Below are positions 1,074 to 31,062 of a stretch of DNA of 64,000 nt, piece after piece. This stretch comes from Methylococcaceae bacterium. GTDB lineage: Bacteria; Patescibacteriota; Microgenomatia; UBA1400; PJMF01. The translations under genes were made by a program, and so were the position numbers. Below the pieces are notes generated by a model, which saw only the letters and a list, made by a program, of their open reading frames with translations, had not been told where the DNA came from and ran no database searches. The stretch is from positions 8,759 through 72,758 of the forward strand of contig JBILVZ010000002.1 in assembly GCA_044370175.1 (NCBI GenBank). The letters run 5' to 3'. How positions within the stretch are numbered: the first letter of the stretch is position 1; each line of letters begins with the position of its first letter.

Positions 1074-4000
1074 TTAAGAAATTGTAGCGTCTTTCTCATC
1101 TTTCATCCACTCGTAATACAACACTGGTATAAAAAGTAACATAATGGTGCTCGCAATCAGCACACCCGAGATAATTGCCCCACCCAACCCACGCCAGAGG
1201 GGATCCGAAATGGTAATGGGCAGCAGTCCAAAAACAGTCGAAAGTTTTGTCAGAATAATTGGCTCTAGTCTACTAGCACCTGCATCAGCAATTGAGTGTT
1301 CAAAACTCATACCCTCTTTTTTATTTAAGTTAATTTTATCAACAATAAACATAGAGTTGGTTACAACAATGCCAAACAGTGACAGAACACCAATGAGCGC
1401 TGGAAATGACAGGGGAGTTCCAAAAAGTGCAAATGACAAGAATACCGACGCTACTGCAAAAGGAATGACAATGATCACGATCGCTGCTTGTCTAAACGAA
1501 CCGAACTGTACCACCATGGTAATCATAATTAAGACAGCAGAAAGGAGCATTGCTTGCAGTATTGATTGAATTGATTTAGCATTTTCTTCATTTACACCAC
1601 CAGTTTCCCAGGTATATCCTGGCTTAAACTCAATAGACTCTACATACTCCAATAATTGTTTGTTTGCTTCTGGGATAGATTGCCCCGCTACCACTGCTCC
1701 ACTGATTGTCATACTACGTTTATAGTTGCGATGCGTAATAACGCTAGGATTTGGCTTTGTTTTTACCTCACCAAGGGCGACCAGTGGAATAGAACGCCCG
1801 TCGGGCGTAAAAACTTGCAGTTGCAGTAAACCTTCAGGAGAGCCTAATTCTGGTGTCATTCTAAAAATAATTGCTGTTTTATCGGTATCAGCAGCATCAA
1901 AAGCTATCTGATCGAGCGGCAAGCCTGAAGCATATAGTCTCAGTGCGTTAGCAACTGTATCTACACTGACCTGCAGTTCCGCCAACGTATTGTAGTCTGG
2001 CTTAAACTCAATTCCACTGGTACTTTCAGCTACAGAAGTTCTGACGTTAGTAATATTTGACTGAGACTGTAGGTATGTTTTAACCTGTGTTACATACTTT
2101 TCAAGCTCCAATAGATCCTCACCCAGGAGCGTAATCTGTACATCAGCACCTGCAGGTGGGCCACCAGAGACTTCGATCACAGAAATCTCCCCCACCGCGT
2201 ACGACTTAAATTCTGCACGTAGTGCTGTTGCAATATCGGTTGAAGTTCGTTCTCTTTTTTCTTTTTCAGAAAGTTTAACTGTAAAGAAAGCACTATTTGC
2301 GTTATTGGATAATGCTGAACTGCCAGAATCATTTGGTGCAGTGCGCCCAATCTCTGCAGTGACATACTCAGCTTCAGGAATTTGACGTAGTTGTTCAAGT
2401 ATTTCCGCCCCTGCAGTTGCTGTCTGGTCAATGGTTGCACCACTTGCGAGTTTCAGTTCAACATACACTTGATCCTCATTGGTTTTAGGAAAAAATTCAT
2501 TTTTTACAAACCCTAGTGGTAAGAGTGCAAAACAAAAAACAGCATAGACAACCATGGCAATAATTACTTTGCGTCTACTTGATTTGCGGGCGAGGACTCG
2601 TAAAATTAAGCGCTCATATTTTTCTGCTAGTGGCTCTATTGAAATGAGACCTCTATCATCACTGGTACGCAGAAAATCACGCACACCTTGCACCCACCTA
2701 GGTAGGTGCTTGTACATTTTTTGGCTGTTGGTCTGTACAATTTTTGTAGTTATCTTCCAAATAGTACCTCCACCTCGCAAAAGTAAAAAGCTGATAGCAA
2801 AGTAAATACCTATGATGGGTATAAAAAGAGGTGTATTAAAACTAAAAAATCCGATGACTGCTAAGGTCACGATAAATAAAACTATTTTTAAGAGTGTTAG
2901 CACTCGCTGTGGAATAACTGGCTTGAGTAGCACAATCATTAGTGGCAAAGTAATCAATACTGCAATTGCTGTTGAAGATATCATCGTTACCGTCACCACA
3001 ATTGGAATGGGTTTAATAAACTCTCCAATAATACCTGATGCTAAGAGTAGTGGCACAAATGCCCAAATTGTAGTCAGTGTTGTCGACCAGATAGGAATAA
3101 TCGTATCGCGCCATACTAAAATACCTGTTTCTGTAGGATTAAACTTGCCTGTTTTAAAGTACGTAGTCATAGCTGAAACTACTACAATTGTGTCATCAAC
3201 GAGTAGCCCCAGTGCAAGTAAAAATGCAAACAACGATAAGAAGTTAATTGTCATGCCAGTCAGTTGCATTAAAAAGAATGCTGATAAAAATGTCAGAGGT
3301 ACTGTTAGCGAAGAAATCAACGCTTGGCGGAAACCTAAGAACAAAAATAACACCGTCATGACAAGTACAATTGTGGTTGCAAACTCACCTAAAAGATCAG
3401 TAAACTGCTCCTGAATTTGTTCACTGGTGTTAACAATAGAGATAAGTGAAACTGTACCATTGCTCTGTTTGATAAATTCATCCACGACACTCGCTACTGC
3501 ATTGCCTGTGCTAGAGATATCTGCAGCGGTAGTTTTATAGACTGAAAATACGACAGAACGGGCGGCTGGCTTATCATGCGAAGCAATGAATGTGGTTTGC
3601 TGATTCACCACTGATTGCTCCTGAATCGTAGCAATTTCTGCTAGCGTTACCACCTGATTTCCTGCACTGATTTGCAAGTTTCGTATATCTGCCACTGACT
3701 CTACTCTGCGATCAATGCTAATCGTAAAAGTATTGGTATCTGACTGAACTGTACCAGCTGGAAAAGAGTTGCGTGCTGAACGCACTAACTGCGATAGCTG
3801 TAGGGGATTAATTTTATACTGTGCTACCTTTTGCGGATCGATATATACCACCACCTCTTGTGTCTCAATTCCAGTTGTTTCTACTCTATCGACTTGCGTA
3901 ATATCTTCAATTTTGTGCTTTAAATCATCAGCAGCCGCCATTAAATCGGGGATATCCCCAGTACTGATGAGTGCGAACTGCCAAACAGGGACGTTCTCGA

Positions 4001-4460
4001 AATCGAGGACTTTAGTATCAGGCTCTGAAGCAGTTTCAGGCAGCACAATACTCCCTAGCACATTTTGCACATCTTCACGAGCCTTTTCTCGGTCAACTGT
4101 TGAGAAGAATTGGACTGTTATAAACGAGACATTTTGTTGTGAAACGGAGCTGACTTGATCAATACCCTGCACACTTTGAATGGCATCTTCCAGTGGTGTG
4201 GTGACCAATGTTTCTACATCTTGTGGTGATGCACCAGGGAGCGTAGTAAGTACCGTTACAATTGGGATTTTTACCTCAGGGTTTAATCGTTTTGGCAAAT
4301 TGAGATATGAAACTAAACCTACCAGAGTTATCGTAATAATCAGAAGCAGTACCAACCTAATATTTTGTATGTATGAGGCCACAAAACCGGTTAGGAGTTT
4401 TGAATCAAACTGTAATCGTTCAAGATATGAATCTCTTTTTTTATTGGCAATTTTCTGCAT
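1074..4460 (-). CDS. RND family efflux transporter permease (AcrB/HAE1-like), 1128 aa
   Basis: 1128-aa ORF with 12-TM architecture in two halves. Each half has a large periplasmic loop, typical of the AcrB/MMPL fold. The membrane-fusion-protein gene lies directly upstream on the same strand. Confidence 0.9.
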   Translation of the reverse strand: MQKIANKKRDSYLERLQFDSKLLTGFVASYIQNIRLVLLLIITITLVGLVSYLNLPKRLNPEVKIPIVTVLTTLPGASPQDVETLVTTPLEDAIQSVQGIDQVSSVSQQNVSFITVQFFSTVDREKAREDVQNVLGSIVLPETASEPDTKVLDFENVPVWQFALISTGDIPDLMAAADDLKHKIEDITQVDRVETTGIETQEVVVYIDPQKVAQYKINPLQLSQLVRSARNSFPAGTVQSDTNTFTISIDRRVESVADIRNLQISAGNQVVTLAEIATIQEQSVVNQQTTFIASHDKPAARSVVFSVYKTTAADISSTGNAVASVVDEFIKQSNGTVSLISIVNTSEQIQEQFTDLLGEFATTIVLVMTVLFLFLGFRQALISSLTVPLTFLSAFFLMQLTGMTINFLSLFAFLLALGLLVDDTIVVVSAMTTYFKTGKFNPTETGILVWRDTIIPIWSTTLTTIWAFVPLLLASGIIGEFIKPIPIVVTVTMISSTAIAVLITLPLMIVLLKPVIPQRVLTLLKIVLFIVTLAVIGFFSFNTPLFIPIIGIYFAISFLLLRGGGTIWKITTKIVQTNSQKMYKHLPRWVQGVRDFLRTSDDRGLISIEPLAEKYERLILRVLARKSSRRKVIIAMVVYAVFCFALLPLGFVKNEFFPKTNEDQVYVELKLASGATIDQTATAGAEILEQLRQIPEAEYVTAEIGRTAPNDSGSSALSNNANSAFFTVKLSEKEKRERTSTDIATALRAEFKSYAVGEISVIEVSGGPPAGADVQITLLGEDLLELEKYVTQVKTYLQSQSNITNVRTSVAESTSGIEFKPDYNTLAELQVSVDTVANALRLYASGLPLDQIAFDAADTDKTAIIFRMTPELGSPEGLLQLQVFTPDGRSIPLVALGEVKTKPNPSVITHRNYKRSMTISGAVVAGQSIPEANKQLLEYVESIEFKPGYTWETGGVNEENAKSIQSILQAMLLSAVLIMITMVVQFGSFRQAAIVIIVIPFAVASVFLSFALFGTPLSFPALIGVLSLFGIVVTNSMFIVDKINLNKKEGMSFEHSIADAGASRLEPIILTKLSTVFGLLPITISDPLWRGLGGAIISGVLIASTIMLLFIPVLYYEWMKDEKDATIS

Positions 4461-4482: not shown

Positions 4483-5934
4483 CTACTGAATAGAAACTAT
4501 CTCGCCATCGGTCATACCTCTGGTGATAATGACTTTCTCATCATCTGCCAACCCAGAATTAACAACAACGTATCCACCTGACACAGAACCCAGTTCTACC
4601 TGACGTACTCGGGCAACTGTCTTGCCATCTGCTACTACAGCCAGATATACGAACGCTGCTTCTTGTGTTTGGTAGACTGCATCGAGGGGGATATATCTAT
4701 CAACTGTACTAGCTACTGGCGCACCGAGAGGAACCTGGACTGCCACTTGCTCATTGTTTGAAAAATATCGCTCATATTCTCCAGGGATGCTATACAAGAT
4801 GGTGTGCAGTGTTCCATCGGTGGGTTCAGCAGAAATGTAGCGAGGTGCCAGTGAAACTGTAGTACCATCAACACTAAAAGTACTCAGCTCAGCCCGAGAA
4901 ACGCGTGCGGCTACTTCACTCGGCACACTGACAACTGCGGTGATCTCCCGAGCATCAGCTCTAATTACCGCAAGTGGAGTGCCAGGATTTACCAATTGGC
5001 CAACTTTTACAAATACTCGCTCTACCACACCTGAACAAGGTGTAGCAGGATAAAACAAAGATTCAGAGATCCACTGAAGTTTCACCTGTAAATTGGCTAG
5101 ATCTTTTGACAAATCTAGAGACTTTTCTTGTAGTGTTAGCTGCTTGAGTGTGATCTCTCGCTGTAGCTGAGTAAGCTGTGTGGGTTCCTGTTCATTCGAG
5201 CTACTATACTCTGCACTGCGCAATCCTGACTTAAGGTTATTCAAGCCAGCTACAAGCTGTGCTTTTCCTTGTTTAACTGCAAGAATAGCGCTATCGGTAG
5301 CGCCATTGACATTAGTAGCTTCTAAGTCTTTCAGCTGTAGATTGACGGAGTTTAAAATTTCTTCATTGAGCTTAATAAGATCGCGTGTTTCTTGCAGTGA
5401 ATCTCTGGTAATACTTCGTAAATCACCTTCTCTTGCCTCTGTCTTCTCTGCCACTTCTCTTTGTTGTCTTATGGTATCTTTTTGTAACTGATAGTTCTCG
5501 TTGGCAGACTGGGCAGTACGCTCTGCAATTCTCCGGGTCACAGCTGCTGCATTTGCCCCTTGGTAGTTGGTTGAAAGGATAACAAGTTTTGCACCTCGCT
5601 TGATTGAGGCACCTTCCGTAACTGGAACCTTCTGTACAATGCCACTCGTTTGAGCAAAGATGGTAATAACTCCACTTTTTTCGATTTTAGCAGTTACTCC
5701 AATGGTTGGAGACTGACCTTGAGCATAAATAGTCACTGCTGTTGGGGCTGCCTGCTCTGGTTCAAGTGAAGTGACCGGGGTACGCAGATAGTTACCTACT
5801 ATAATACAGACTAGTAATACAAAAAGTAGTCCGATAAAAAGAGTAAATGGGTGAGCATCGATCACTGCCAGTAGTTTGTTTTTTGTTCTCACAAAAAATG
5901 CTTTCAGTTTTCCCATATCTGGGGACCTTTCCAA
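4483..5934 (-). CDS. Efflux pump periplasmic adaptor (membrane fusion protein, HlyD family)
   Basis: N-terminal single TM (FTLFIGLLFVLLVCIIVG), a long coiled-coil segment (residues ~130-290) and beta-rich lipoyl/barrel regions. Its stop is 23 nt upstream of the RND gene start. Confidence 0.75.
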   Translation of the reverse strand: MERSPDMGKLKAFFVRTKNKLLAVIDAHPFTLFIGLLFVLLVCIIVGNYLRTPVTSLEPEQAAPTAVTIYAQGQSPTIGVTAKIEKSGVITIFAQTSGIVQKVPVTEGASIKRGAKLVILSTNYQGANAAAVTRRIAERTAQSANENYQLQKDTIRQQREVAEKTEAREGDLRSITRDSLQETRDLIKLNEEILNSVNLQLKDLEATNVNGATDSAILAVKQGKAQLVAGLNNLKSGLRSAEYSSSNEQEPTQLTQLQREITLKQLTLQEKSLDLSKDLANLQVKLQWISESLFYPATPCSGVVERVFVKVGQLVNPGTPLAVIRADAREITAVVSVPSEVAARVSRAELSTFSVDGTTVSLAPRYISAEPTDGTLHTILYSIPGEYERYFSNNEQVAVQVPLGAPVASTVDRYIPLDAVYQTQEAAFVYLAVVADGKTVARVRQVELGSVSGGYVVVNSGLADDEKVIITRGMTDGEIVSIQ

Positions 5935-6038
5935 TTTTAGAGTATCTTCGGAGACTGTAGATTATAACAGATCAATTATGATCAATAGATATCAAAGTGT
6001 GGAGGAGTAAAGTGTTTGTAAAATTTTCTCAGGACTTT

Positions 6039-6311
6039 TTAGTGATCTTGGTCAGCTTTTTTAAGAACTTCTTCAGTCTCTAGATTGGGCATCTGGACAC
6101 CCACAGACTGCTCACTGTGCACTTGAACTGCGGGATCTACCAGACCCTGCTCTTGGACAAAGGCGGTTTCTTTTTCTTCAGCAATAAGCTCATTAAATGA
6201 ACTATCAAAGTCTAGAGTTCCAATTCTGGCTATACTTTTAGGGTCACTGAAAGCTGATTGGACTTGATCATTTGTAATTTTTTTTATGGATTCTGCCGTT
6301 GTGTCTTGCAT
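6039..6311 (-). CDS. Hypothetical small acidic protein (90 aa)
   Basis: Intact ORF between the adaptor gene and the membrane glycosyltransferase-like gene. Acidic composition; no recognisable motif. Confidence 0.35.
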   Translation of the reverse strand: MQDTTAESIKKITNDQVQSAFSDPKSIARIGTLDFDSSFNELIAEEKETAFVQEQGLVDPAVQVHSEQSVGVQMPNLETEEVLKKADQDH

Positions 6312-6399
6312 ATCTTATGGTGCTGCTTGTAAATATACAAGTTATTTTTAATAAAAAGTTCACGAGTATGTAAGAAGGTACTCAGTTTTGTGGGAGTAC

Positions 6400-8157
6400 C
6401 TATCTCTTATACAGTCGTTTACTACTATATTGCATAGTACCACTCACACGCCAAAATACTATGCCTATACTCAAGATTGATAGGCTATTTCCTACTATTC
6501 TGGCTGGAGTCTGCTGTGTCATCTTGCTATGCACTTCCCAGTTTCCTGCAGGAAGTGTAAATGTAACTTGTCCTTTATACGTTTTCACAGCTTCTGTTCC
6601 TGTCGTATCTCCAATCAGCGCCACGCTAGTAGTGTTTGCCCATACTTTCCAACCTGGAAAATACATAGTTGGTTCTACCACCGTAACAGCTTCTTGCGCA
6701 GACACGGTATAGGTGCGGTACGTTCCTCGCCATTTTAGGTTAGAGACTTGACCTGCCCCATGGATTTCAGGTTTATTACTACTAACTATCCAAGGTTCCA
6801 TGGAAAAAGTTTTTGGACGTAGTTCATCCGAAACTGTCGAGGTCAGTGGATAATTAAGATAATACGCAGTAGCAAAGTTAGCAAACTGTGGCCAGTACCA
6901 GTGCGGCACATATACTGCGTGAGCGATGATGCCCAAGCCCAGTATGAGTTGTACCGGTTTATACTTTGTCTTCCACAGCAACCCACCTAGTATAGCCAGA
7001 GTAATCGTTAATGGACCTAAAAACCTCCATGGGAACTGAAAGTATGGCAATACTAGTATGTACTTCCAGACTACTTGAGAAACGGGGAGCTGTACAAATA
7101 TACAAAGTACTGCAAAGACGAGGAGTGAAAGTATACCTAAGTAGTTGCTTGTTCTCTCGTATCTACCTAGGCTCTCTAATAAGAGATATACTATTGCAGC
7201 TATAAGCACTGATAAACCAACAAAACCAATCCCTAGTGAAAGTGAATCATTTGGGCCAAGTATAGAGATTCCATTTGTCACATTAGAATTAAATAGCTGC
7301 AGCAAAGTAGAAAAGTGTTCTAGATATTGTGTATCTAATAAATCATCAAGAACAATGTATTTTTTCTCTGCTAGTGTTGGTATCCAGAAAAATGCGCTTA
7401 TACCAAAACCTAGCATACATTCGCAAGCTACACTCCATACAGAGCTTGCGTTTCGCTTTCTTACCAGCGCATACAGTAAAGACAGTGGAAACAACAACAC
7501 TGCATAAATGTTATGTGCAAGTAACACAGCCGCACTTAGTAGTGTAACTCCTATTGAGGAGATGAGCAGCTTACTTTCATTTTCTCTTCGCCATTCCACA
7601 ATACACAGCAACCAGATACATGCTGCACAAGCCAATAATTCACCATACGCACCACGGATATATATCAAAGTGTAAAAGTATGGGCCAAGCATGCACACCA
7701 ACATACTCAACAACGCTGCTATTTTTTGCTTAGTAAGTTGCAGAATGTAAAAATATATCCCTAGCCACAAACTCATCCAGGCCACTAAAATAATTATTTT
7801 GAAAACCAATTGAGGATTACTCCCTACAACTACAAATGGTGCTCCAATCATATTGAGTAATGGATAATGAAAATTAAAAACAGGATACCCAAATCCATTC
7901 CAGAAAGACGGTGCAAAACGAGGTGGGAACTGTCCTTGTTTTAGGGCTGATGCATAGTTGGTAATACGAGCAATATGACCTTCACCATCATGTGTCACTG
8001 GAAACCCTACATGAAACAGCGGTGCCAACAAGCGGATCATCAGTATCCCAATTACTACAATTAAAACTTTTTCAGGTAGTGTCAAGTTTTTTATGAACTG
8101 CGACAGTGCAGCTATTCTGGATTGTAAAACTTTTTTAATCTGAAACATACACTTCAT
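6400..8157 (-). CDS. Polytopic membrane protein, putative GT-C fold glycosyltransferase (ArnT/PMT/YfhO-like)
   Basis: At least 10 predicted TM helices, with an early loop DxE (VTHDGEGH) as in GT-C enzymes, and a ~200-aa C-terminal soluble domain. Start chosen at ATG 8155-8157 (MKCMFQIKK). The longer ORF to 8286 would overlap umuD. Confidence 0.45.
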   Translation of the reverse strand: MKCMFQIKKVLQSRIAALSQFIKNLTLPEKVLIVVIGILMIRLLAPLFHVGFPVTHDGEGHIARITNYASALKQGQFPPRFAPSFWNGFGYPVFNFHYPLLNMIGAPFVVVGSNPQLVFKIIILVAWMSLWLGIYFYILQLTKQKIAALLSMLVCMLGPYFYTLIYIRGAYGELLACAACIWLLCIVEWRRENESKLLISSIGVTLLSAAVLLAHNIYAVLLFPLSLLYALVRKRNASSVWSVACECMLGFGISAFFWIPTLAEKKYIVLDDLLDTQYLEHFSTLLQLFNSNVTNGISILGPNDSLSLGIGFVGLSVLIAAIVYLLLESLGRYERTSNYLGILSLLVFAVLCIFVQLPVSQVVWKYILVLPYFQFPWRFLGPLTITLAILGGLLWKTKYKPVQLILGLGIIAHAVYVPHWYWPQFANFATAYYLNYPLTSTVSDELRPKTFSMEPWIVSSNKPEIHGAGQVSNLKWRGTYRTYTVSAQEAVTVVEPTMYFPGWKVWANTTSVALIGDTTGTEAVKTYKGQVTFTLPAGNWEVHSKMTQQTPARIVGNSLSILSIGIVFWRVSGTMQYSSKRLYKR

Positions 8158-23934: not shown

Positions 23935-24843
23935 CTAGTACTTTCCAGTATATGCTTTTTCCAACTCTGCTATGGTAAACTTCTTCATTTTTAAAAAAGA
24001 CTCTGTCACCTGTTTGATTTGTTCTGGAGTACCCTCACTCAGCATCTTGTCCATTGCGGTAGGTACAATCTGCCAGGATACACCAAACTTGTCCTTAAGC
24101 CAGCCACATTGTTCGGCTTCAGGTACTGCACTCAGTTTTTGCCATAGGTCGTCAATTTCTGCTTGCGTGTCACATTTGACGAGTAGTGAAACTGCCTCAG
24201 TGAATCCAAACTCATGAGTTTGACCACCATCCATTGCCGCAAACCACTGCCCTTCAAGCATGAAGTCTGCATACATTAGTGAGCTTTTCTCGTCTGGGGC
24301 AGTTCCTTCAGGATACTTTGCTTGGATACCCTTTTTAGAGTTATTAAAAATTGTAGTGTAGAAGTCAATTGCTTCTGCTGCTCTACCTGACACCGCTTTT
24401 GTAAAGAGAAGTGATGGTGTTATGAAGGGTCGTTTTTCTCCATCTGGATCACTTAAAATAAGCTGCCAAGCAACACCAAATTTGTCTTCAATCCAGCCAT
24501 AGAGCTTGCTAAAGTCATAGTCTTGCAGTGGCATCAATACCTTGCCTCCAGAAGAAAGTTTGTTCCAAAGTTTAGTAAGTTTTTCTTGAGCATCTGCTTC
24601 AGCAGCTGGATCAAAATTGAGCATAAAAGAAATAGCAGGGTTTATCTTGAAGTACGGGCCTGCACTTATTGCCATAAACTGAAAGCCTGCGATCTCAAAA
24701 GAAACAATATCTGTATCTCCAGATGGAGTGCCAGGTAGTGTAGATACATGGTTAACTTTTGCATCAGGAAATGTACTTGCATAAAACTCAGCTGCTTGTC
24801 GTGCTTCTGAAGCAAACCATAGGTGGGGGATAATTTTTTGCAC
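23935..24843 (-). CDS. VOC-superfamily protein with two tandem PhnB/3-demethylubiquinone-9 3-methyltransferase-like domains
   Basis: Internal duplication: both repeats begin (K)I.P.LWF...A.EA.EFY...F (residues ~3-30 and ~150-180), as in the PF06983 glyoxalase-like fold. Confidence 0.55.
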   Translation of the reverse strand: MQKIIPHLWFASEARQAAEFYASTFPDAKVNHVSTLPGTPSGDTDIVSFEIAGFQFMAISAGPYFKINPAISFMLNFDPAAEADAQEKLTKLWNKLSSGGKVLMPLQDYDFSKLYGWIEDKFGVAWQLILSDPDGEKRPFITPSLLFTKAVSGRAAEAIDFYTTIFNNSKKGIQAKYPEGTAPDEKSSLMYADFMLEGQWFAAMDGGQTHEFGFTEAVSLLVKCDTQAEIDDLWQKLSAVPEAEQCGWLKDKFGVSWQIVPTAMDKMLSEGTPEQIKQVTESFLKMKKFTIAELEKAYTGKY

Positions 24844-24974
24844 CCTTGTATTTTAACAAAATTTTATGCTCTGAGCAGTAGATAAAGTATTGTATTGGCA
24901 TTGTTTGCCTCACTACAATTTAGCGCAACCCAGTTGCTTTAATTAAGTATGTCTGCTATATTATTGCAATTAAG

Positions 24975-25991
24975 TTGCGTTATATAGCAGGAGCATATAT
25001 GTCATTTCTATTCACTAATGAAACTACTAGAGGGGCAACTACAATTCAGCCCCGATCAAAACTAGTAGCAATTGATCAGCACCAACTTTTACGATCAGAA
25101 GATCAGCCTGGACAGATAGCAACCTTTGATCAAGTAAGAGCGATGGGTGAGTTATTTATAAAACAAAATTTTAATGACGTTGTACTTTCAACACATTCTC
25201 TACCACAAGCGCTCATCCACAGACATCTCCGAGATGGCGGTGGCGCATTTTGGGGCAAACTTGCGTTTGGTGCAAATAAAGATTGCCAATTTCCTGTAAC
25301 TATTGAGGTTGTCCCTGTAGGAAGTGGATGGGATCTGCAACTTTACATTGTTCCTATCCACTTTGCAGCGTTAGAAGTAGCACAGTTCGAAAAGCACACC
25401 GATAGTCTACTAGCGCTTGCTGCAGTCGCAGCAGTTGCACCGCAATTTATTTTAGCTTTTAAAGATGGCATCTCCACAACAAACTGTGCTCGAAGCAGCA
25501 AAGCAGTCACGAGTTTACAGGCGGATCATGGGACACCACTAGCTGTTGTTTTTGATAGCCTCACTCGTGAGCAAGGTGAATCGGAGAGTACGCTCATGAG
25601 TGCTATTTCAGTTACGGGTAATCCAGATTTAAGCATTAAACAAGCTGCACATTTACATGGTAGAAGAGGCACAGAAACAACGTTACTTTCACAAGCAGCA
25701 GCTGGATCAAAAGTAGCTGGTGGAGTGCCAATACAAACTGCTTTGCGGAGTCAGTTGAGTCGGCATGCACTCTATATACCAACGCGTACTGATGGACTAG
25801 GAGATAAAGCTATTGTTACTATTGATTATTCTTTGCATGAAGCAAAGATTATGGGGCTCAACGCGTCGCAATTAGCTACAGCTTTAGGGTTTACCGCACA
25901 GGTTATTGGTAATCCTAGTGCAGAGCAAACAATTGAAAAGGTTTTACAACCTGCTGTAGCAGATATGCCATTAACAGAACTGGTGTCATGA
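24975..25991 (+). CDS. Hypothetical protein (338 aa), no recognised domain
   Basis: Intact ORF, Ala/Gln/Thr-rich. Locally higher GC than its neighbours. Its stop overlaps the next gene's start (ATGA). Confidence 0.4.
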   Translation: MRYIAGAYMSFLFTNETTRGATTIQPRSKLVAIDQHQLLRSEDQPGQIATFDQVRAMGELFIKQNFNDVVLSTHSLPQALIHRHLRDGGGAFWGKLAFGANKDCQFPVTIEVVPVGSGWDLQLYIVPIHFAALEVAQFEKHTDSLLALAAVAAVAPQFILAFKDGISTTNCARSSKAVTSLQADHGTPLAVVFDSLTREQGESESTLMSAISVTGNPDLSIKQAAHLHGRRGTETTLLSQAAAGSKVAGGVPIQTALRSQLSRHALYIPTRTDGLGDKAIVTIDYSLHEAKIMGLNASQLATALGFTAQVIGNPSAEQTIEKVLQPAVADMPLTELVS

Positions 25992-26662
25992 TGAGTAGCG
26001 AAAGAATTTCAAGTTTCTCTCCAACTATTGAAGAACCTGAGCCAGCTAATAAATCTGAGGTTATTGCAGCAGCAGACTTCGACCTATCATCATTTTTTGA
26101 GACGCCAGAAACAGATGTTGTAGAAGCAAGATCAGAAGCTGAACCACTAAGCGAAAATCAGCAAGCAGCTACTCAACCAGAAATAGATTTACTGGTGACA
26201 CTGCGTAATGATGCTGCAGAATCAATAGGTAAGATCACCTCAAAAGTTACGGCACAAACATTTGCAGTAGGTGCTGATTTTACTGCTAACATATTCTCAC
26301 TGCTGAGTTCAATGGCGGGCAGCTGTGGGATCTTTTGTGGACATGCACTCAGCACCATATCCAGTGCTGGCACGGGAATGCAAGGACTTGCCAGTATGGG
26401 TGGAGTGAGTAGTCCAACGTTTAACATAGATAGAGCTGGCAACTTTCACCTCGATGGCAATATAGACACAATATCTCGAGCTACTGGTATTCCAAAAGCT
26501 GATTTACTATCGGGTAAATATTCTCCAGAAGATATCTTTGCGGTATTCCTATCAGCATTCGGTACTGGTATAAACAATCTGTTTGGATTTGGATTGGTTG
26601 AAGTAATAATTACCTGTATGTTTGATTGTGTATCCAATCGTACTGCAACAAATAATTCTTAG
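25988..26662 (+). CDS. Hypothetical protein (224 aa): acidic N-terminal third, Gly/Ser/Ala-rich hydrophobic C-terminal half
   Basis: Translationally coupled to the upstream ORF. The C-terminus (...SMAGSCGIFCGHALSTISSAGTGMQGLASMGGVSS...GINNLFGFGLVEVIITCMFDC) is hydrophobic and glycine-rich, possibly membrane-inserting. Confidence 0.4.
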   Translation: MMSSERISSFSPTIEEPEPANKSEVIAAADFDLSSFFETPETDVVEARSEAEPLSENQQAATQPEIDLLVTLRNDAAESIGKITSKVTAQTFAVGADFTANIFSLLSSMAGSCGIFCGHALSTISSAGTGMQGLASMGGVSSPTFNIDRAGNFHLDGNIDTISRATGIPKADLLSGKYSPEDIFAVFLSAFGTGINNLFGFGLVEVIITCMFDCVSNRTATNNS

Positions 26663-26769: not shown

Positions 26770-28068
26770 ATGAAAATCTTTTACAGCTTGCTTGGCACAG
26801 TTCTAGTGGCTGCGGCTACCAATAACTATGTTTGGTTTGCACTTGTTTTTTGGTTGTACTTAGAAACACAATCCGTTGTTGCAACAGGGTTAGCGGGTGG
26901 AATGTACTTTGTAGTAAGTGCACTTTCTAGCTTCTGGTTTGGTTCACTCGTAGATAATCACAAAAAGAAATCTGTGATGCTAGGTTCTAGCATTGCCTCA
27001 CTTATTTTCTTTAGTATCAGTTTTTTAGTATATTCTTTTAGTCCAGAATCCGCATTTCATTCGTTAACAAGTCCCATTTTATGGACTTTTGTATTTTGCA
27101 TACTTTGTGGCACACTTGCTGGTAATATCTATGGTATTGTCGTCCCAACTTTGGTCACGGTTTTGGTCCCTGAAACTATGCGTGACAAAGCTAATGGCAT
27201 GGTTGGCACTATCATGGGTCTAGCTTTTTCATTAACCTCAGTTGCAAGTGGTCTTGTGCTTGGTAACTTTGGAATGTCATGGGTTTTAGGAAGCGCAGTA
27301 ATCCTAACAATTTGCGTCTTTGTAGCAATACTGTTACTTGATCTTACCGAACAGCAAATAATTCATACACATTCTCAAATCGAGGTCACAGGCATAGATA
27401 TCAGAGGTACTATACATATAATCAGCAGTATCAAAGGTTTATTTGCCTTAATATTTTTGACGACCTTCAATAACTTGCTTGGTGGCGTATTTATGGCATT
27501 GATGGATGCTTATGGTTTGACACTCGTCTCTGTTCAAACTTGGGGGTTACTTTGGGGTGGTCTGAGCATGGGTTTTATCATTGGCGGACTGTATATTTCT
27601 AAATATGGCTTGGGCACAAACCCTGTTCAAAGTTTATTCAAAGTGTATATAGTTTTATGGAGTAGTACTATTCTTTTTGCAGTCCAACCATCAATAGTTT
27701 TGCTAGCAGTTGGGGTACTAGTTTGGCTGATCTTGTCACCGTTTATTGAAGCGACCGAACAAACTATCATTCAAAAAGTAGTTCCTGCTCAGCGCCAAGG
27801 TAGAGTTTTTGGATTTGCACATAGTGTTGAGCAAGCGGCTTCACCATTGACGGCATTTCTGATTGGACCGATCACCCAAGCTTTCTTTATTCCACTGATG
27901 ACTACTGGACGCGGTGCAGAGTTGATTGGAAGTTGGTTTGGTGTCGGGGCGGGACGAGGCATGGCAGTAGTATTCATCACTACGGGAATAATTGGTTTGA
28001 TTATTACCCTACTTGCGATGCGGCTGCGAGCTTATCGTGAGTTGGCTATCGAGTATACGAAAAACTAA
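26770..28068 (+). CDS. MFS transporter
   Basis: 12 predicted TM helices in two six-helix halves separated by a cytoplasmic loop; 432 aa. Confidence 0.85.
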   Translation: MKIFYSLLGTVLVAAATNNYVWFALVFWLYLETQSVVATGLAGGMYFVVSALSSFWFGSLVDNHKKKSVMLGSSIASLIFFSISFLVYSFSPESAFHSLTSPILWTFVFCILCGTLAGNIYGIVVPTLVTVLVPETMRDKANGMVGTIMGLAFSLTSVASGLVLGNFGMSWVLGSAVILTICVFVAILLLDLTEQQIIHTHSQIEVTGIDIRGTIHIISSIKGLFALIFLTTFNNLLGGVFMALMDAYGLTLVSVQTWGLLWGGLSMGFIIGGLYISKYGLGTNPVQSLFKVYIVLWSSTILFAVQPSIVLLAVGVLVWLILSPFIEATEQTIIQKVVPAQRQGRVFGFAHSVEQAASPLTAFLIGPITQAFFIPLMTTGRGAELIGSWFGVGAGRGMAVVFITTGIIGLIITLLAMRLRAYRELAIEYTKN

Positions 28069-28624: not shown

Positions 28625-29110
28625 CTAGTGATGCATCTTGTTGGAAGCTTCATTTGCTGGAATGGGTACGTTTGTATACTTACTATCTAACCAGCTTTCC
28701 AATAGTTGTATCTCTTTAGTTTGGGTATTATCAATAATTGCTTGGGTCATCTTCTGTAGCTCTGGCCACTCAGTTATATTCAAGATTTGACGAGCCATAC
28801 CGATTGCACCGCGATGATGCACAACCATGCCTTCAATATATGCTTTTTCTAGTTGTCTATCTGTTAGTTTGGTCAGATCACTCATCATCAGCATGTACCT
28901 GCCATCTGGTCGATATTCTTGTCCAAACCATTGGGTATGCCACTGCTTCATTTGCGTAATTTCATGAGACTGTACTGTGATCACATCTTGCAAAAATTGT
29001 TGCAACTGAGGATCTGTGGTACGTGTAAGCAGATATGCAGAAGTATCCACTGCCTCTTTGTGGTGTGGGATCATGCCCATGATAAAGTCTGCATCATTTG
29101 CGACAGTCAT
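28625..29110 (-). CDS. DUF305 family protein (four-helix, His-rich; metal-related)
   Basis: Duplicated MIPHHKEAV / MVVHHRGAIGMA motifs are characteristic of DUF305. A TM/signal-like segment (KYFPTFFFGASTLLIIGAGIVGWAALQA...) continues in frame upstream to 29266 without an ATG. Confidence 0.65.
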   Translation of the reverse strand: MTVANDADFIMGMIPHHKEAVDTSAYLLTRTTDPQLQQFLQDVITVQSHEITQMKQWHTQWFGQEYRPDGRYMLMMSDLTKLTDRQLEKAYIEGMVVHHRGAIGMARQILNITEWPELQKMTQAIIDNTQTKEIQLLESWLDSKYTNVPIPANEASNKMHH

Positions 29111-30567: not shown

Positions 30568-31062
30568 TTGGTTGGTACTATACTACATGCAACTATGTCG
30601 CATCAAGAAGCAAAATTAAACCTAGAGAAATACTTTAAGCTTTTAAAAAAGAAGGGATTAAAGCTCACGCAAACCCGTGGTTTGCTACTGGCAGTTATTG
30701 ACACGTTTACTACACCATTTACCGCTGAAGATTTACTGCAACATATTCATAAACAGCAGCTACAAGTACACCGAGCAACAGTTTATAGAGATCTGCATCA
30801 CTTTACACAAGCTGGCATACTGAACGAACTGACGTTTGAGGGTTCAGATGCACACTACTACGAACTTCCGACACAACCACGCCATCATCATTTTGTATGT
30901 CAAAAATGCTCAAAAATCATTGATGTTTTTCCAACAAAAGTTGAGAGGGCGCTTGAAAAATTTACAGCAGCACTCAGCTCAGAAGGTTTATCTGTTACCC
31001 ATCATCATCTAAAGTTCTACGGCAGATGCTCGGAATGTTCAGCTGCTACTGCTATAGCATAA
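30568..31062 (+). CDS. Fur-family metal-responsive transcriptional regulator
   Basis: Winged-helix N-terminus (LKLTQTRGLLLAVI...ATVYRDL), then HHHFVCQKCSKIID and HHHLKFYGRCSECS, which are the Fur HxH and CxxC metal sites. Confidence 0.8.
   Translation: MVGTILHATMSHQEAKLNLEKYFKLLKKKGLKLTQTRGLLLAVIDTFTTPFTAEDLLQHIHKQQLQVHRATVYRDLHHFTQAGILNELTFEGSDAHYYELPTQPRHHHFVCQKCSKIIDVFPTKVERALEKFTAALSSEGLSVTHHHLKFYGRCSECSAATAIA

Follow-up and report, generated by a model that had tools for sequence, protein, structure and literature searches.

To our knowledge, the known members of Zur regulons are almost all ZnuABC and ZIP transporters, TonB receptors, COG0523 chaperones, zinc-free ribosomal paralogues, or zincophores, and these regulons are the chief source of insight into how bacteria handle zinc starvation. 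In the closest described systems, the znuABC-zur and zur-ZIP loci, the regulator gene lies in or beside the operon and an operator palindrome covers the promoter, i.e., transcription is autoregulated and metal-repressed; the znuCB-zur operons of Firmicutes end with zur after the transporter genes. Here, we report a pair of overlapping open reading frames, ORF1 and ORF2, in a 64,000-nucleotide stretch of contig JBILVZ010000002.1 (hereafter the window), which shares this logic. The palindrome, the placement of a regulator gene in or beside the operon, and the position of the operator over the promoter are the same as in those loci; however, where the described systems have one operator, the pair has two that bracket the −10 element, and its cargo is not ZnuA, ZnuB, ZnuC, or ZIP but two proteins without known relatives. 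What appears to be new here is an operon, assigned to a Zur regulon from its sequence, that carries two new protein families, one of them with a predicted fold that has no match.

Alignment of the DNA 5′ of ORF1 revealed a conserved 7-1-7 palindrome, (A/T)TGCAAC-T-N-A-GTTGCAT, in two copies. The comparison covered 13 ORF1-bearing loci, i.e., 12 independent loci with the pair (the window, identical to L003 and L004, together with L001, L002, L005–L009, and L011–L014) plus L010, in which ORF1 is followed by the contig edge and which was counted for the promoter only. Two boxes with an exact core, 40 to 43 bp apart, are present in 11 of the 13; the second box of L012 has one mismatch, and L007 is cut by the contig end, leaving one box visible. 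The same spacing of 40 to 43 bp is found in 12 loci, and it is 45 bp in a remote locus, L040. Box 1 has its right arm (TTGCAT) in the position of the −35, and next come 17 nt, the −10, 1 to 4 nt, and box 2; the 17-nt spacer together with a hexamer matching TATAAT at 5 of 6 positions was found in 10 of the 13 loci. After box 2 come 13 to 41 nt with a GGAG-type ribosome-binding site and then the ATG. Scanned with a position weight matrix (PWM) trained solely on loci other than the window, the window has four sites: the two promoter boxes, of which box 2 is the top site of the whole 64 kb at 21.9 bits, a site at the start of a Fur-family gene (at 30586), and one intragenic site. High-scoring boxes in 219 kb of fetched loci are essentially confined to ORF1 promoters. 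In L014, where the Fur beside the pair is divergent, the two boxes share one symmetric substitution (TGCAAA-N3-TTTGCA), as expected for protein-site co-evolution. Operators over the −35 and over the start site are a classic layout for repression by occlusion. If each box were occupied by a metal-loaded repressor dimer, RNA polymerase would be kept out, and exhaustion of zinc would turn the ORF1-ORF2 operon on. That the palindrome might form an RNA hairpin or terminator was considered and rejected because box 1 sits 5′ of the −10. The intragenic site, which lies in an AcrB-family gene, probably arose by chance. In L005, the 29 nt that separate ORF2 from the Fur gene are filled by a degenerate box (AATGCATCTCAGTTGATAT, 7738–7756, 12 bits), which may act as an internal operator or match by chance.

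The gene for the likely repressor is often found next to the pair. A Fur-family gene encoding 119 to 143 amino acids lies directly 3′ of ORF2, after 17 to 50 nt, in 7 of the 12 loci (L005, L006, L007, L009, L011, L013, and L014). When JGI metagenome contigs were scanned with a profile of these short, pair-linked Furs, 26 loci were found, among them the truncated contigs L016 and L017 as well as L040, these three with an ORF2 homologue directly 5′ of the Fur gene; L037 probably has one too, judged by eye from the C terminus of its upstream reading frame. We take ORF1-ORF2-zur to be the ancestral order of the cassette, which would have been co-transcribed with its own regulator. The regulator thus would be last in the repressed operon, as in znuCB-zur, which encodes ABC transporter subunits instead of orphan proteins. 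Members of the short Fur clade have an NKTSVYR recognition helix, two CxxC motifs, and an HHHxH cluster, and in a neighbor-joining tree, the pair-linked Furs nest in a compact clade beside a ZIP-linked member; the Fur of L014 (143 amino acids), which is without the His cluster, is an outgroup. Two further reading frames were seen directly 5′ of a short Zur-like gene, in L019 (2747–3184) and L020 (3513–3974). Their products (145 to 153 amino acids, no Pfam match) combine a CDGSH-like motif at the N terminus, CxCGxSxxxPxCDxSH, with a long metallothionein-like tail rich in Cys, Asp, Glu, and His, and they could be another undescribed member of the short-Zur regulon.

The nature of the metal is indicated by both the operator and the genes that share it. 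The palindrome of the pair is identical to ATGCAACnnnGTTGCAT, which was predicted as the Zur site of Desulfovibrio znuABC-zur operons (Rodionov et al. 2004, PMC545781). Ten loci devoid of the pair have this palindrome, as GCAA-N5-TTGC, 45 to 125 nt 5′ of the short Fur gene; the short-Fur loci without the box have housekeeping neighbors. The divergent gene that shares the box region with the short Fur encodes a ZIP transporter in L021, L032, L035, and L038 (E values 1e-35 to 1e-38); in L029 and L033, it encodes ZnuA, behind which lies an ABC-3 permease or an ABC ATPase. The ZIPs of the short-Fur loci have His-rich loops, and the L029 ZnuA has a His/Asp/Glu-rich loop, which we take to be a mark of zinc-specific ZnuA proteins. 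Because the palindrome is a published Zur site and the same box is found between short Furs and ZIP or ZnuABC genes, the pair is very probably cargo of a Zur-type regulon. We conclude that the short Fur clade is of the Zur type and is predicted to act on the ORF1-ORF2 promoter among others, zinc being the best-supported candidate signal. Taken as sequence evidence, a 7-1-7 operator over the promoter, linkage to a Fur gene, and a clade that sits beside zinc importers are all seen here, as for a Zur regulon.

In the window organism, the regulator is a separate matter. The window has a single Fur homologue, which is recognized by Pfam FUR on the identical contigs and matches Fur, PerR, Nur, and Zur structures in the PDB at E values of 5e-20 to 1e-11; it shares 24 to 32% identity with the short Furs and is an outgroup in the tree. 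Its start is covered by a third box, the only match with one mismatch or less in the window outside the ORF1 promoter. A TATACT hexamer and a box containing the ATG of the gene itself suggest a leaderless, autoregulated transcript. This Fur is our candidate for the regulator of the pair in this organism, which may have swapped or lost the cassette-linked regulator.

The two genes were always found together. An ORF2 homologue is located directly 3′ of ORF1 in all 12 independent loci that have downstream DNA, ATGA overlaps were found in 8 of the 11 junctions examined, and the remaining neighborhood varies from locus to locus. Translational coupling and co-occurrence, the former claimed and the latter proposed as a check by an earlier note made from the sequence of this window, were thus borne out, and the conserved gene order supports the view that ORF1 and ORF2 function as one unit, coupled in translation. 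L040 (2011–4108) carries the pair as well, in a very divergent cassette with a clear ORF2 homologue and a Fur gene; its ORF1 relative (359 amino acids) is recognizable by profile comparison only (probability 95%) and keeps the Cys...His...HxH pattern. The L014 cassette (4920–7173) has its ORF2 in two reading frames (112 and 124 amino acids), reflecting a frameshift or a sequencing error.

Several descriptive claims of that note can be confirmed or corrected here. Both reading frames are intact, are on the forward strand, and overlap by four bases (ATGA, 25988–25991). The TTG at 24975, from which a 338-amino-acid ORF1 had been read, is almost certainly not the start; based on the spacing of the AGGAG, the independent gene calls on two identical public contigs, the N termini of the homologues (all beginning M-(P/S)-x-(L/I)-F), and the position of the TTG within operator box 2, we place the start at the ATG at 24999, which gives 330 amino acids. 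The TTG is a few nt past the −10 and inside the operator, so that an ORF1 read from this codon would be leaderless. The composition was rightly described: ORF1 is Ala-rich (12%) and soluble in character (grand average of hydropathy 0.05), with one very hydrophobic helix at residues 135–156 (Kyte-Doolittle mean over 19 residues, KD19, 2.1); the N-terminal 70 residues of ORF2 are acidic (isoelectric point 4.05), and its C-terminal half is Ser/Ala/Gly-rich with two hydrophobic segments, possibly membrane-associated. The N terminus of ORF2 is probably disordered. As for the GC content that was said to exceed the flanks, this holds only against the directly adjoining AT-rich intergenic DNA; the value for the pair (0.424) ranks at the 64th percentile among windows of equal length (0.415 ± 0.027). 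The matching records have a GC content of 38 to 44%.

Both proteins have invariant residues that could bind metal. His177, His218, and His220 of ORF1 are invariant down to 23% identity, and Cys163, Gly157, Pro180, and Glu309 are at least 90% conserved over the same range. Cys113, Cys117, and His119 are invariant among the ORF2 homologues (193–268 amino acids, conserved along most of the length), which also share (D/E)FDLxxFF within an otherwise variable acidic N terminus, DLLxxL(R/K)xDxxES, GNFHLDGNIDSLSRATGIS, and a hydrophobic C-terminal helix. ORF1 His177/His218/His220 with Cys163 and ORF2 Cys113/Cys117/His119 look like zinc ligands. An EF-hand-like loop was considered in ORF2 and rejected, since the sequence pattern does not fit. 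The C termini of ORF2 in L005–L009, L011, and L013 are mostly -AA, -VA, -TA, or -LA (ELALAA, LPMAA, SQAA, PQAA), resembling ssrA-type or tail-specific-protease degrons; the window ORF2 ends in NRTATNNS instead.

Neither protein could be assigned to a described family. As the earlier note had said, no motif can be placed, with no significant match of ORF1 or ORF2 in Pfam, NCBIfam, PADLOC, PHROGs, or PDB sequences; a Pfam scan of 26 members of the ORF1 family gave isolated matches only (E > 0.04, none recurring), and profiles of both families against all PDB sequences gave nothing at E values up to 10. Among 5.8 billion proteins, ORF1 has 41 relatives, all of about 325 amino acids, all annotated as hypothetical, and, besides one near-identical copy, with 44 to 58% identity to the window protein. 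An ORF1 profile against 1.84 billion representatives found 28 clusters, all of its own family and nothing more distant, and a scan of genome contigs, swamped by a low-complexity LALAAAAAVA pattern, confirmed one locus on a 5.7-kb contig of a metagenome-assembled genome, whose label, uncultured Pseudomonadales, we do not rely on for taxonomy. Comparison with the importer families themselves (PF01297, PF00950, PF00005, and PF02535) gave no Pfam or NCBIfam match for either protein, and tblastn of the pair against the ZIP, ZnuA, and ZnuB genes of the related loci showed no similarity. Structure prediction, a check that the note had proposed, succeeded for one protein: the AlphaFold (AF2) model of ORF1, from a 29-sequence alignment, has a predicted local distance difference test score (pLDDT) of 83.6 and a predicted template modeling score (pTM) of 0.85, and no structural neighbor of it was found in the PDB or BFVD; ORF1 is thus predicted to have a fold without relative among solved structures. 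No paper describing the two proteins was found in our literature search, and a search on Zur in Saccharibacteria found nothing. One protein, P0055 (459 amino acids), joins ORF1 residues 1–278 to an unrelated tail of about 180 amino acids, probably because of a frameshift or a chimeric assembly and not through a true fusion of domains.

Table 1. Positions of the pair, its predicted promoter, and other features discussed (numbering of the window)
Feature	Position	Strand	Remark
Operator box 1 (CGCAACCCAGTTGCT)	24924-24938	.	Degenerate TGCAAC-N3-GTTGCA palindrome; PWM 19.1 bits
Predicted −35, TTGCTT	24934-24939	+	Right arm of box 1
Predicted −10, TATATT	24957-24962	+	17 nt past TTGCTT; promoter by consensus
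Operator box 2 (TGCAATTAAGTTGCG)	24965-24979	.	2 nt past the −10, over the expected transcription start; 41 bp from box 1
Shine-Dalgarno, AGGAG	24989-24993	+	5 nt 5′ of the ORF1 ATG (24999); read from the sequence
ORF1	24999-25991	+	330 amino acids, ATG start; predicted cytoplasmic protein, orphan family
ORF1 Cys163	25485-25487	+	Candidate metal ligand
ORF1 His177	25527-25529	+	Candidate metal ligand
ORF1 His218	25650-25652	+	Candidate metal ligand
ORF1 His220	25656-25658	+	Candidate metal ligand
ORF2	25988-26662	+	224 amino acids; coupled to ORF1 in translation via ATGA
ORF2 FDLxxFF motif	26078-26098	+	In the acidic N terminus
ORF2 G-x-C-G-x-x-C-x-H (Cys113, Cys117, His119)	26318-26344	+	Invariant; within the first hydrophobic helix
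ORF2 residues 144-175			Small conserved module; C-terminal hydrophobic helix beyond
TATACT (putative −10 of Fur homologue)	30579-30584	+	3 nt 5′ of the third box
Third box (TGCAACTATGTCGCA)	30588-30602	+	One mismatch; contains the ATG of the Fur homologue; PWM 14.8 bits
Fur homologue	30595-31062	+	155 amino acids, two CxxC motifs, HHH cluster; sole Fur homologue in the window
PhnB-type VOC gene	23935-24843	−	5′ flank of the pair
DHA3-type MFS gene	26770-28068	+	3′ flank of the pair
DUF305 gene	28625-29110		Metal-related neighbor
AcrB-family gene	1074-4460	−	Contains the intragenic PWM site
Intragenic PWM site (CATGCCAGTCAGTTGCATT)	3252-3270		16 bits; probably a chance match

The flanking genes named by the earlier note, a VOC-family gene and an MFS transporter gene, are indeed there, and the wider window is ordinary chromosome (LepA, MurJ, class A penicillin-binding protein, TruB), with no matches in tRNA and Rfam scans. 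The MFS gene, which is not conserved with the pair in other loci, holds the post-ORF2 position that is taken by the Fur gene elsewhere. Neither a terminator nor a convincing promoter was detected in the 107-nt gap between ORF2 and the MFS gene; since no terminator is detectable, this gene may be co-transcribed with the pair in the window organism. Metal-related genes lie near the pair in some loci without being conserved across them: the window has DUF305, and L001 (728–4081) has DUF305 as well as a copper P-type ATPase and an ArsR-YHS regulator.

How might two such proteins serve a Zur regulon? In the model that we prefer, the products of the pair would act in zinc acquisition or trafficking. 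ORF1 would be a cytoplasmic protein of new fold that binds metal via His177, His218, and His220, joined by Cys163 from a flexible loop. Its partner ORF2 would be anchored at the membrane by two hydrophobic helices rich in small residues, the first bearing the Cys-x3-Cys-x-His motif, and the acidic FDLxxFF tail of ORF2 would make the contact with ORF1. Taken as a whole, a Zur-regulated cassette whose products acquire or traffic zinc is the best explanation that we have, and we lean slightly toward it; that the pair acts in acquisition or trafficking in just the way described is close to an even call, tilting toward doubt. We consider a stronger form of the model speculative and rather unlikely: in a lineage of uncultured bacteria, the small membrane Cys/His protein and the cytoplasmic His3Cys protein, under a compact Zur and a double operator, would stand in for ZnuABC or ZIP as a machine that imports zinc or hands it over. 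No ZIP, ZnuA, or ZnuB was seen in the window or in the pair loci, within the limited DNA examined.

Several observations weigh against this model and should be kept in mind. The hydrophobic segments of ORF2 (KD19 1.0–1.7 and 1.4–2.0) are borderline for transmembrane helices, the protein is acidic without a positive-inside pattern, and its AF2 model is poor (pLDDT 51), the one part of the structure prediction that failed; membrane insertion of ORF2, and hence a role in import, is uncertain. In ORF1, Cys163 lies in a low-pLDDT loop of the model, and we have assumed that it meets the three histidines in space. The PF01297 and ZIP families also include manganese and iron transporters. Finally, no short Zur gene is present within the 64-kb window, its sole Fur being an outgroup with a weaker box; the regulator of the pair in this organism is inferred, since only an outgroup Fur is found there.

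The alternative that fares best accepts the Zur regulon and denies the uptake. ORF1 could be a zinc-independent or alternative-metal replacement of an essential zinc enzyme, or a cytosolic zinc buffer or chaperone, with ORF2 as an accessory or scaffold protein. Zinc-sparing paralogues and chaperones are common in Zur regulons; ORF1 is well-folded and globular, with a His3(Cys/Glu) constellation like that of a catalytic mononuclear site, and ORF2 is not convincingly an integral membrane protein. However, ORF1 has no likeness in sequence or fold to any enzyme family, an obligatory coupled hydrophobic partner with its own Cys/His motif would be unusual for a back-up enzyme, and the cassette occupies the importer position of related loci. 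A test for COG0523-type chaperones found no CobW or P-loop match in Pfam or NCBIfam, and no Walker A motif in ORF1 or ORF2. Since related genomes have a ZIP or ZnuABC importer in the slot beside zur, a zinc-supply role is favored over a purely enzymatic one, and we regard the non-uptake alternative as unlikely.

The regulator might also sense another signal (manganese, nickel, iron, or peroxide), with the pair serving that metal or the defense against oxidative stress. ZnuA-family and ZIP transporters are not strictly zinc-specific, and comparison of the short Furs with solved Fur, Zur, Nur, and PerR structures gave similar scores and assigned no subfamily; the short Furs keep the common His33/86/88/90-type site. 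The box, too, fits more than one regulator: the 6-5-6 Nur box of Streptomyces, tTGCaa-N5-ttGCAA, is contained in it (TTGCAA-N5-TTGCA is seen), and a Fur-family protein is the regulator in both cases (Streptomyces coelicolor Nur, PMC2691836). The pair palindrome differs, however, in that it extends inward (C...G) to a 7-1-7 form, and the Nur-specific nickel site is not conserved, the alignment placing Arg at the equivalent of His70, His or Tyr at that of His72, and His at that of His126. No nik or sod genes are linked to the pair, and what adjoins the clade is ZIP and a ZnuA bearing a His-rich loop rather than nik, sod, kat, or ahp genes. Considering in addition the exact published precedent of the palindrome as a Zur site (PMC545781), we find a signal other than zinc improbable.

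In a third alternative, ORF2 is a precursor, and ORF1, as a protease or a metal-dependent modifying enzyme, processes or modifies its Cys-x3-Cys-x-His segment; the product would bind metal, for example as a zincophore-like peptide or through a nickel-hook-like N terminus. The only recurring theme among the structural matches of ORF1 would suit this, namely papain-like cysteine peptidases (C39, CHAP, UfSP, SpvD), which, like ORF1, have conserved Cys and His residues on an alpha+beta scaffold; all of these scores are below significance. In contrast to known peptide precursors, ORF2 is longer than 190 amino acids and conserved far past the Cys motif, and no exporter or further tailoring gene is conserved with the pair. 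A methanobactin-like precursor and maturase of a ribosomally synthesized and post-translationally modified peptide was rejected on similar grounds (ORF2 of 193–268 amino acids conserved along its length, ORF1 without a Pfam match), and we consider processing of ORF2 by ORF1 very improbable. The least credible suggestion, that of the earlier note, is a horizontally acquired two-component toxin/effector or secretion substrate, which the orphan status of both proteins, the hydrophobic Gly/Ser-rich segments of ORF2, and the variable, accessory-looking neighborhoods may call to mind, but the GC content is normal, tblastn of ORF1 against plasmids and phages found no homologues, no toxin, defense, or phage family matches either protein, no signal peptide can be read in their N-terminal sequences, no secretion-system gene and no third gene that might serve as immunity is conserved beside the pair, and its conserved partners are a metalloregulator gene and the operators of that regulator.

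A conserved Fur-family gene and a Zur-type double operator thus place the pair in metal, i.e., zinc, homeostasis; in all likelihood, it belongs to the zinc-starvation response of a group of uncultured bacteria, as a component not described before. Two orphan families gain a concrete functional context from this, for they take the place of the importer next to zur. Whatever the function of the pair may be, the double-operator promoter and the compact Zur clade (about 120 amino acids) are useful for regulon reconstruction. If the pair moves or delivers zinc, it would represent a new class of metal-homeostasis protein together with a new fold, and it would show how poorly studied, uncultured bacteria solve their zinc supply.

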